From the IMG/VR virus record IMGVR_UViG_2740892229_000003: 5,022 nt of DNA. One strand, given 5' to 3'. The translations under genes and the position numbers were made by a program. The notes beneath the pieces are model-generated. The model did no database searches and was not told the origin of the DNA. It saw only the letters and a list, made by a program, of their open reading frames with translations. Positions 2 through 3,000 of the stretch are shown here, piece by piece (the first letter of the stretch is position 1; every line of letters starts with the position of its first letter). The stretch is from a virus (Duplodnaviria > Heunggongvirae > Uroviricota > Caudoviricetes).

Positions 2-3000
2 GTGCAGGCACTGGTGGAAACCACCTCAAAGGGGGACCGGAATCCGTCGGAAGTTCGCCTGCTGGTTCAGATACAGCGTAACGGTGGCTGGGTGACGGAA
101 AAAGACATCACCATTAAGGGCAAAACCACCTCGCAGTATCTGGCCTCGGTGGTGGTGGATAACCTGCCGCCGCGCCCGTTTAATATCCGGATGCGCAGGA
201 TGACGCCGGACAGCACCACAGACCAGCTGCAGAACAAAACGCTCTGGTCGTCATACACCGAAATCATCGATGTGAAACAGGGCTACCCGAACACGGCACT
301 GGTCGGCGTGCAGGTGGATTCGGAGCAGTTCGGCAGCCAGCAGGTGAGCCGTAATTATCATCTGCGCGGGCGCATTCTGCAGGTGCCGTCGAACTATAAC
401 CCGCAGACGCGGCAATACAGCGGTATCTGGGACGGAACGTTTAAACCGGCATACAGCAACAACATGGTCTGGTGTCTGTGGGATATGCTGACCCATCCGC
501 GCTACGGCATGGGGAAACGTCTTGGTGCGGCGGATGTGGATAAATGGGCGCTGTATGTCATCGGCCAGTACTGCGACCAGTCAGTGCCGGACGGCTTTGG
601 CAGCACGGAGCCGCGCATCACCTGTAATGCCTGGCTGACCACACAGCGTAAGGCGTGGGATGNNNNNNNNNNTGCTACCCGAACACGGCACTGGTCGGCG
701 TGCAGGTGGACTCGGAGCAGTTCGGCAGCCAGCAGGTGAGCCGTAATTATCATCTTCGCGGGCGCATTCTGCAGGTGCCGTCGAACTATAACCCGCAGAC
801 GCGGCAATACAGCGGTATCTGGGACGGAACGTTTAAGCCAGCATACAGCAACAACATGGCCTGGTGTCTGTGGGATATGCTGAACCATCCGCGCTACGGC
901 ATGGGGAAACGTCTTGGTGCAGCAGATGTGGATAAATGGGCGCTGTATGTCATCGGCCAGTACTGCGACCAGTCAGTGCCGGACNNNNNNNNNNTAAACG
1001 TCTTGGTGCGGCAGATGTGGATAAATGGGCGCTGTATGTCATCGGCCAGTGTTGCGACCAGTCGGTGCCGGACGGTTTTGGCGGCACGGAGCCGCGCATC
1101 ACCTGTAATGCCTGGCTGACCACACAGCGTAAGGCGTGGGATGNNNNNNNNNNGAAACGTCTTGGTGCGGCGGATGTGGACAAATGGGCGCTGTATGTCA
1201 TCGGCCAGTACTGCGACCAGTCAGTGCCGGACGGCTTTGGCGGCACGGAGCCGCGCATCACCTGTAATGCGTACCTGACCACACAGCGCAAGGCGTGGGA
1301 TGTGCTCAGTGATTTCTGCTCGGCGATGCGCTGTATGCCGGTATGGAACNNNNNNNNNNTTCTCAGTGATTTCTGCTCGGCGATGCGCTGTATGCCGGTA
1401 TGGAACGGGCAGACGCTGACGTTCGTGCAGGACCGACCGTCGGATAAGGTGTGGACCTATAACCGCAGTAATGTGGTGATGCCGGATGATGGCGCGCCGT
1501 TCCGCTACAGCTTCAGCGCCCTGAAGGACCGCCATAATGCCGTTGAGGTGAACTGGATTGACCCGGATAACGGCTGGGAGACGGCGACAGAGCTTGTGGA
1601 GGACACGCAGGCCATTGCCCGTTACGGTCGTAACGTCACGAAGATGGATGCCTTTGGCTGTACCANNNNNNNNNNAATAACGGCTGGGAGACGGCGACAG
1701 AGCTTGTTGAAGATACGCAGGCCATTGCCCGTTACGGTCGTAATGTTACGAAGATGGATGCCTTTGGCTGTACCAGCCGGGGGCAGGCACACCGCGCCGG
1801 GCTGTGGCTGATTAAAACAGAACTGCTGGAAACGCAGACCGTGGACTTCAGCGTGGGTGCCGAAGGGCTTCGCCATGTANNNNNNNNNNGCCGGGGGCAG
1901 GCGCACCGCGCCGGGCTGTGGCTGATTAAAACGGAACTGCTGGAAACGCAGACCGTGGACTTCAGCGTGGGTGCCGAAGGGCTTCGCCATGTACCAGGTG
2001 ATGTCATTGAAATCTGTGATGATGACTATGCGGGGATCAGCATCGGCGGGCGCGTGCTGGCGGTGAACAGCCAGACGCGGACACTGACGCTCGACCGTGA
2101 AATNNNNNNNNNNCGCACCGGCGGGCGCGTGCTGGCGGCAAACAGCCAGACCCGGACGCTGACGCTCGACCGTGAAATCACGCTGCCATCCTCCGGTACN
2201 NNNNNNNNNAGCACCGGTGGTCGCGTGCTGGCGGTAAACAGCCAGACCCGGACGCTGACGCTCGACCGTGAAATCACGCTGCCATCCTCCGGTACNNNNN
2301 NNNNNTCCTCCGGCACCACGCTGATAAGCCTGGTTGACGGGCAGGGTAATCCGGTGAGCGTGGAGGTCCAGTCCGTCACCGACGGCGTGAAGGTGAAAGT
2401 GAGCCGGGTTCCTGACGGCGTTGCCGAGTACAGCGTGTGGGGGCTGAAGCTGCCGACGCTGCGTCAGCGCCTGTTCCGCTGTGTGAGTATCCGTGAGAAC
2501 GATGACGGTACGTATGCCATCACTGCCGTGCAGCATGTACCGGAGAAAGAAGCCATCGTGGATAACGGGGCGCACTTTGACGGTGACCAGAGCGGCACGG
2601 TGAATGGTGTCACGCCGCCAGCAGTTCAGCACCTGACCGCAGAAGTCACCGCAGACAGCGGGGAATACCAGGTGCTGGCGCGCTGGGACACGCCGAAGGT
2701 GGTGAAGGGGGTGAGCTTTATGCTTCGCCTGACCGTGGCAGCGGACGACGGCAGTGAGCGGTTGGTCAGCACGGCCCGGACGACGGAAACCACATATCGC
2801 TTCACGCAGCTGGCGCTGGGAAATTACAGGCTGACAGTCCGGGCGGTAAATGCATGGGGACAGCAGGGCGATCCGGCATCGGTATTGTTCCGGATCGCCG
2901 CACCGGCAGCGCCGTCGCGGATTGAGCTGACGCCGGGCTATTTTCAGATAACCGCCACGCCGNNNNNNNNNNGGCAGCTGGCGCTGGGGAACTACAGGCT

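Follow-up and report, generated by a model that had tools for sequence, protein, structure and literature searches.

Does a succession of variant copies of the same gene blocks, lying one behind the other on a single strand, describe the genome of a phage, or does it describe the way in which the sequence was put together? The question is raised by the window (the whole 5,022-nt stretch of DNA that was analysed here), which holds pieces of the lambda-type tail-tip gene J followed by lom, the latter interrupted by an IS66-family element, and in which 15 segments of A, C, G and T are separated by 14 N-runs, each of exactly 10 N. An initial annotation, made from the sequence alone, had noticed two blocks in J that each occur in three versions, and had ascribed them to at least three distinct J alleles from a genome or population with three or more lambdoid prophages. 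Our analysis indicates that the window is, with high probability, part of a short-read scaffold over J, in which the variant blocks are paralogues from several prophages that were laid out serially.

In comparison with lambda gpJ and its homologues in E. coli prophages, nothing of substance is different in the gene itself. The J of allele A, taken from a closed relative (Table 1), scores above the cut-offs for six gpJ Pfam families (FNIII-A_GpJ, Phage-tail_3, Ig_J, Ig_J_second, Phage_Tail_Tip and Ig_GpJ_C) and aligns with the solved lambda gpJ (8iyk_J) from residues 1-836 to residues 1-836 (E = 0, 2186 bits). Segments 1 and 15 of the window match FNIII-A_GpJ and Ig_GpJ_C, and segment 15 (Ig_GpJ_C, E = 4e-40) encodes the C-terminal receptor-binding domain and the stop codon at 4719-4721. 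The order of the lambda J module (tape measure, M, L, K, I, J, lom, tail fibre) is shared by three prophages of the closed relative, and lom follows J in the window too, at 4790. The window matches J and lom in 5,264 of 5,426 complete E. coli genomes as well as in lambdoid phage records, and segment 4 matches 4,447 of the same 5,426 genomes, in which the number of matching places has a median of two and a maximum of 13.

Table 1. Segments, N-runs and downstream features of the window, followed by the three prophages of NZ_CP027355.1 with which the segments were compared (chromosomal coordinates of J).
Feature	Position	Strand	Description
Segment 1	1..662	+	J nt 351-1012, codons 117-338; fourth allele 'D'; block 1 version 1 (514-662)
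Segment 2	673..984	+	J nt 631-942, allele C; 100 % to the 2.65 Mb prophage
Segment 3	995..1143	+	J nt 864-1012, allele A; 100 % to the 1.00 Mb prophage (lom::ISEc23); block 1 version 2 (C307, G318, W328)
Segment 4	1154..1349	+	J nt 864-1059, allele B; 100 % to the 2.10 Mb prophage beside nleB2/nleC; block 1 version 3 (Y307, G318, Y328)
Segment 5	1360..1665	+	J nt 1013-1318, A-type; merged node after segments 1 and 3
Segment 6	1676..1879	+	J nt 1219-1422, allele C; 100 % to the 2.65 Mb prophage
Segment 7	1890..2103	+	J nt 1319-1532, A-type; ISIGG version of block 2 (2039-2103)
Segment 8	2114..2199	+	J nt 1468-1553, allele C; RTGG...LAANSQ version of block 2; 100 % to the 2.65 Mb prophage
Segment 9	2210..2295	+	J nt 1468-1553; STGG version of block 2; further allele, not A, B or C
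Segment 10	2306..2962	+	J nt 1543-2199, allele A; 100 % to the 1.00 Mb prophage
Segment 11	2973..3146	+	J nt 2042-2215, allele C; 100 % to the 2.65 Mb prophage; overlaps the end of segment 10
Segment 12	3157..3356	+	J nt 2285-2484, allele A; 100 % to the 1.00 Mb prophage
Segment 13	3367..3892	+	J nt 2358-2883, hybrid contig (basis: mismatch positions)
Segment 14	3903..4119	+	J nt 2838-3054, allele C; 100 % to the 2.65 Mb prophage
Segment 15, first part	4130..4721	+	J nt 2889-3480, allele A; 100 % to the 1.00 Mb prophage
N-runs 1-7	663-672, 985-994, 1144-1153, 1350-1359, 1666-1675, 1880-1889, 2104-2113		
N-runs 8-14	2200-2209, 2296-2305, 2963-2972, 3147-3156, 3357-3366, 3893-3902, 4120-4129		
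Terminator-like hairpin and T-run	4741..4768	+	between J and lom; hairpin 4741-4760
lom, 5' part	4790..4963	+	Ail/Lom outer-membrane protein; Pfam PF06316, E = 3e-32, residues 1-59
IS66-family element (ISEc23), terminal 59 nt	4964..5022	.	begins GTAAGCGTCAACGG
Prophage A (lom::ISEc23)	J 1,000,523-1,004,002		segments 3, 10, 12 and 15 exact; segments 5 and 7 with two differences each
Prophage B (beside nleB2/nleC)	J 2,094,633-2,098,031		segment 4 exact
Prophage C	J 2,646,857-2,650,339		segments 2, 6, 8, 11 and 14 exact

Every segment is open in one frame and encodes part of one protein, with the frame shifting between segments. An intact, continuous J frame is absent from the window, as the frame changes at the N-runs and 69 nt are missing, and the broken frame is thus a property of the scaffold and not of the gene. 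The missing stretch, J nt 2216-2284, is covered by no segment, so the N-run at 3147-3156 conceals a real 69-nt hole. The J segments share one strand, and none starts earlier in J than the segment before it, yet they overlap in J coordinates, such that 1,216 J positions are represented two to four times in the coverage map across segments. A repeat search across the whole window returned 11 direct-repeat families, not merely the two blocks named at first; each family pairs the end of one segment with the start of the next, and every block copy is flanked by a 10-N run.

This redundancy disappears in finished sequences. Every top hit from the 5,426 complete E. coli genomes aligns in 14 pieces, in which about 4,960 nt of the window correspond to about 3,370 nt of the subject, which means that about one-third of the window is redundant. 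The expanded arrangement of J is absent from the 5,426 complete E. coli genomes, and phage records likewise collapse it. Other public drafts of the lineage carry the same J (1159 aa) on a single N-free contig of 5.3-5.7 kb that ends at the IS; the fragmentation is therefore particular to the present assembly.

Most of the pieces can be placed in one closed chromosome. Segment 15, including its lom::ISEc23 junction, is matched at 100 % over its full length in only five complete genomes, among them NZ_CP027355.1, which belongs to E. coli 2013C-4991, an American O80:H2 EHEC (PMC8537712). NZ_CP027355.1 contains seven places homologous to the segment 4 region, and the segment comparison was made with three of these J-like places, namely the prophages at 1.00, 2.10 and 2.65 Mb, whose J genes are referred to as alleles A, B and C and which each have their own tail module of tape-measure, L, K, I, J and lom genes. 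Ten of the 15 segments are base-perfect in this one chromosome, spread over the three prophages. Segments 1 and 9 have an exact match in none of the three, so at least four J alleles are represented in the window; the initial annotation was right that multiple alleles are real and set their number too low. The source that it proposed, with at least three lambdoid prophages bearing homologous J genes, has its counterpart in the three prophages of the closed relative that match segments exactly, and where it had allowed for the contrary case of a closed genome with a single J, the seven J-like places of NZ_CP027355.1 show the opposite. Because alleles A, B and C are all carried by one chromosome, its other proposed source, a population, need not be invoked. 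The host strain belongs near the O80:H2 EHEC lineage of E. coli that includes 2013C-4991; since segments 1 and 9 are unmatched, it and 2013C-4991 are related but not identical.

The two named blocks are present as described. Block 1 occurs in three versions of 149 nt each that are in register (514-662, 995-1143 and 1154-1302) and that vary between Y and C at J codon 307, S and G at codon 318, and W and Y at codon 328. A fourth, partial version at 906-984, within segment 2, had been overlooked, and J nt 864-942 are thus present in four distinct versions. Block 2 occurs in three copies (2039-2103, 2114-2199 and 2210-2295) with the ISIGG, RTGG and STGG variants. Among the 1,216 J positions covered by at least two segments, there are 83 variable sites, which are distributed over the three codon positions as 11/13/59 (71 % third positions; binomial p = 2e-12 versus one third), and neither indels nor stops were found at these multiply covered positions. 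The variable codons comprise 49 with synonymous changes only and 22 that change an amino acid. The claim that differences between copies are dominated by synonymous third-position changes accordingly holds over the whole window (59 of 83 sites), but is thinner inside the named blocks on which it had been made, with seven synonymous sites versus three amino-acid-changing codons in block 1 and about four versus three in block 2. When the complete J of each of the three prophages and a fourth J from another strain are compared, dN/dS is 0.05-0.09 at a dS of 0.13-0.17 (Nei-Gojobori, codons 1-761), which confirms that the structural part of J is under strong purifying selection. Over the first two thirds of J, nucleotide differences between the alleles amount to 3-6 %, and the J genes are about 95-97 % identical; over segment 15, allele A has about 77 % identity to B or C. 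Divergence is far greater in the C-terminal receptor-binding part, as is usual for host-range proteins.

Could it instead be that a single J was covered several times and that the differences between copies are errors of sequencing or of the consensus? Two amino-acid changes private to segment 1, C211G (nt 281) and A273V (nt 468), occur in no reference and would fit such an origin. Errors are nevertheless difficult to reconcile with the 71 % share of third positions and the lack of indels and stops, and also with 10 segments that are base-perfect to the prophages of an independent closed genome and with segment 4 and segment 9 alleles that recur exactly in many unrelated genomes. On these grounds sequencing error was rejected, and we assign it next to no probability. 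The alleles are genuine, functional copies of the gene on which purifying selection acts, and they keep the frame and differ mostly at third positions; the preference of the initial annotation for diverged gene copies over sequencing error is thus upheld by the dN/dS values, the exact matches and the codon-position bias.

A further source of real alleles would be different strains, present in a mixed culture, a contaminated library or a metagenome, whose J genes were strung together by the assembler. The window alone cannot separate paralogues from strain variants, and the two segments outside alleles A, B and C would be compatible with a mixture. For segment 1, the 5,426 complete E. coli genomes contain no exact match, with 98.8 % as the best value over the whole segment, and the same was true of its 514-662 block (best 99.3 %). 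The allele of segment 9 has 4-7 mismatches to alleles A, B and C. Exact copies of it occur in 64 other complete-genome records, and among the 60 of these that are listed, none is of the 2013C-4991 lineage; this allele probably comes from a prophage that is absent in 2013C-4991. Against a mixture stand the 10 segments found exactly in three prophages of one closed chromosome, and the joint occurrence of two rare features: the segment 8 allele is exact in only six complete-genome records, and five of these six are the very five complete genomes that have the lom::ISEc23 junction. Moreover, with seven J-like places in one chromosome, extra alleles are to be expected in a single isolate. We therefore regard an origin from several strains as quite improbable, and the combined evidence points to a single isolate as the source.

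If the alleles are paralogues, the positions at which the segments begin and end should be informative about how they came to stand in series. In 12 of the 14 internal contigs the very first base is one at which another allele differs, and the 3' ends of nine of the 14 contigs (segments 1, 2, 3, 6, 7, 8, 9, 11 and 12) lie exactly 60 nt past the last difference from another segment or allele. Segment 2, whose first base is variant, ends 60 nt past its last difference from segment 1; segment 3 does so relative to segment 1 and allele C, segment 6 relative to segment 7 and allele A, segment 7 relative to allele B, and segment 11 relative to allele A, while the last 60 nt of segments 8 and 9 are identical. 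Three contig ends lie 44-45 nt, not 60, past the last known variant. With about 7 % of the sites variable, this pattern of starts and ends cannot be due to chance. In a de Bruijn graph, the first base of a node is the one that follows a fork, and the node extends as far as the last k-mer that still contains a private variant. The geometry of the boundaries appears to be the signature of such nodes, with k of about 61, placed in series, and k = 61 would fit nodes that were written without their k-1 prefix. At the 3' end of segment 7, 60 nt past a difference from allele B, there is no B contig, which implies that k-mers of B were in the same graph. Velvet-style output probably gives nodes without the k-1 prefix and a minimum gap of 10 N; a search of the literature on the 10-N convention of Velvet-type scaffolds returned nothing usable, and we tentatively suggest this type of assembler in view of such output together with the k-1 = 60 geometry.

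The layout most probably arose as follows. Short reads are unable to span the stretches common to the paralogues, and the graph consequently splits J into allele-specific and shared nodes. The scaffolder would have set mutually exclusive allele-specific nodes in series, ordered by their position along J, with the order taken perhaps from read-pair distances or from a reference, and the fixed 10-N spacer is a placeholder between nodes and not a measured gap. The outcome is apparent tandem variant blocks, each version of which lies, in the real genome, in a separate prophage, megabases apart. Serial placement of the alternative branches of a bubble by scaffolders is known from heterozygous diploid assemblies. 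The false tandem duplications seen there likewise have alternative versions in series, fixed N-runs and boundaries at variant or k-1 positions, but the versions in the window are prophage paralogues of a haploid genome and not two haplotypes.

Genuine tandem partial duplications, or cassettes of J variants that serve, for example, as a store of alternative host-range segments, would have in common with the window only the look of successive variant blocks on the same strand. In a real array, a 10-N run would not be expected at every copy boundary, nor would the frame be lost across copies, and the boundaries in the window obey k-mer geometry instead of domain or codon boundaries. The overlaps span the whole gene, including its conserved N-terminal and central parts, and not the receptor-binding end alone, and no such array is contained in any complete E. 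coli genome, phage record or sister draft examined. For all of these reasons duplication and cassette array were rejected, and the chance that either is correct is minute. The copies do not lie side by side in the genome; their layout is an artefact of scaffolding.

Within the scaffold of prophage paralogues, a few segments are not plain copies of a single reference allele. Segment 1 is A-like at 1-198, continues with a private stretch, and is then B-like at nt 529-532 and C-like at 533-662; part of it could be a mis-join. Segment 13 is identical to allele C for its nt 1-423 and to allele A for its nt 68-526 (the last 459 nt), having passed through a 356-nt stretch that is common to A and C. 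Segment 7 has two non-A bases, both at its start, and segment 5 has two mismatches to allele A and none to two draft contigs of related strains. It is conceivable, though on balance we doubt it, that segments 1, 7 and 13 are true recombinant alleles that arose by recent gene conversion between the co-resident J genes of prophages. If that reading were true, the recombinants would include a J allele (carrying C211G and A273V) that is absent from the 5,426 complete E. coli genomes.

The biology behind the window restates what is known, namely that EHEC-type strains hold several lambdoid prophages and that J is conserved structurally and divergent at its receptor-binding end. Multi-prophage EHEC genomes carry several near-identical tail modules per chromosome, as is the case here at 1.00, 2.10 and 2.65 Mb in addition to four other J-like places, and short reads fail to resolve such repetitive, paralogous features of EHEC prophages (PMC5359411). 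Both the multiplicity of lambdoid prophages in EHEC and the resulting trouble in short-read assembly are already well documented, and nothing about them is new here. What differs from the usual fragmentation of EHEC drafts is that the pieces, instead of remaining small contigs of their own, were chained into one 10-N scaffold that mimics tandem variant repeats. The window is hence a warning for scaffolded drafts of prophage-rich E. coli, in which variant 'repeats' spaced by 10 N are chained fragments of paralogues, and such runs should be taken neither for tandem duplications nor for variation cassettes. ORFs called across such N-runs are meaningless, as exemplified here by ORFs of 489 aa and 503 aa that run through X residues.

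Downstream of J, lom is cut after codon 58 by the IS, and its ORF continues to a stop at 4990 within the element; in NZ_CP027355.1, lom is annotated as a partial gene. Just 59 nt of ISEc23 are present in the window because the contig stops inside this repeat. In the closed relative, ISEc23 carries the tnpA, tnpB and transposase trio and has an 8-bp target duplication, GTTATGAG. Terminal inverted repeats that start with GTAAGCG, a target duplication of 8 bp and tnpA-tnpB-tnpC, as found there, are traits of the IS66 family.

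The window joins J pieces of at least four lambda-type tail-tip alleles, three of which, A, B and C, lie in prophages at 1.00, 2.10 and 2.65 Mb of the closed relative NZ_CP027355.1 (E. coli 2013C-4991), and two of its contigs, segments 13 and 1, combine variants of more than one allele. Segment 13 begins as the J gene of prophage C and ends as that of prophage A, with no mismatch in either portion, and it passes through an exactly identical 356-nt stretch that the A and C genes share. Two readings fit this contig: a wrong join made in assembly, or a genuine recombinant allele. 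Segment 1 (window 1-662) has no exact match among 5,426 complete E. coli genomes, where the best reaches 98.8%. Two of its amino-acid changes, C211G (nt 281) and A273V (nt 468), are private to it, and it is otherwise a mosaic of variants known from alleles A, B and C.

The contig ends bear the marks of assembly. Nine of them lie exactly 60 nt past the last variant, as fits de Bruijn nodes with k of about 61, whereas those of segments 4, 10 and 13 (window 1349, 2962 and 3892) lie 44-45 nt past the last known variant, possibly reflecting further J alleles or a second k-mer size. Only one N-run conceals a true hole, and at all others the flanking pieces overlap or abut; along the A-allele path there are smaller holes of 10 nt ahead of segment 10 and 5 nt ahead of segment 15. 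Two long ORFs were rejected as genes, since they were listed only because translation of the N-runs as X conceals frame changes.

Features of the window and of the allele-B prophage locus (L003) in the closed relative
Feature	Position	Strand	Remarks
Hybrid segment 13	window 3367-3892		C-type first 423 nt, A-type last 459 nt
N-run with true hole	window 3147-3156		J nt 2216-2284, 69 nt in no segment
Terminator-like hairpin	window 4741-4768		GC-rich, with T-run; between J stop and lom
lom cut by IS	window 4790-5022		break after nt 4963; IS66-family element ISEc23
ORF, 503 aa	window 1622-3133	-	mechanical ORF list
ORF, 489 aa	window 1754-3223	+	mechanical ORF list
nleB2 + nleC	L003 11028-12196 (NZ_CP027355.1, ~2.09 Mb)		type III effector genes, allele-B prophage

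The hairpin immediately follows the J stop and precedes lom, its arms and loop reading GGGCGCC-ATTTC-TGGCGCCT before the T-run. Within lom, the ISEc23 end present in the window is GTAAGCGTCAACGG, and the 8-bp target duplication, seen in the closed relative, is GTTATGAG. The insertion leaves a truncated Lom ORF of 66 aa, which looks like a lineage marker because public assemblies have it on record in at least 27 blocks.

In the allele-B prophage, nleB2 and nleC adjoin the tail-fibre genes just downstream, as is typical of effector-carrying lambdoid prophages of EHEC. The C-terminal part of allele A (residues 866-1159 of J at L002, the A locus) matches 9wca, a solved chain named 'A8 gpJ 713' (E = 8.5e-189), better than 8xcj_Z (E = 7.9e-169), a chain whose name says no more than 'Tip attachment protein J', and this ranking hints that the receptor specificity of allele A differs from that of lambda.
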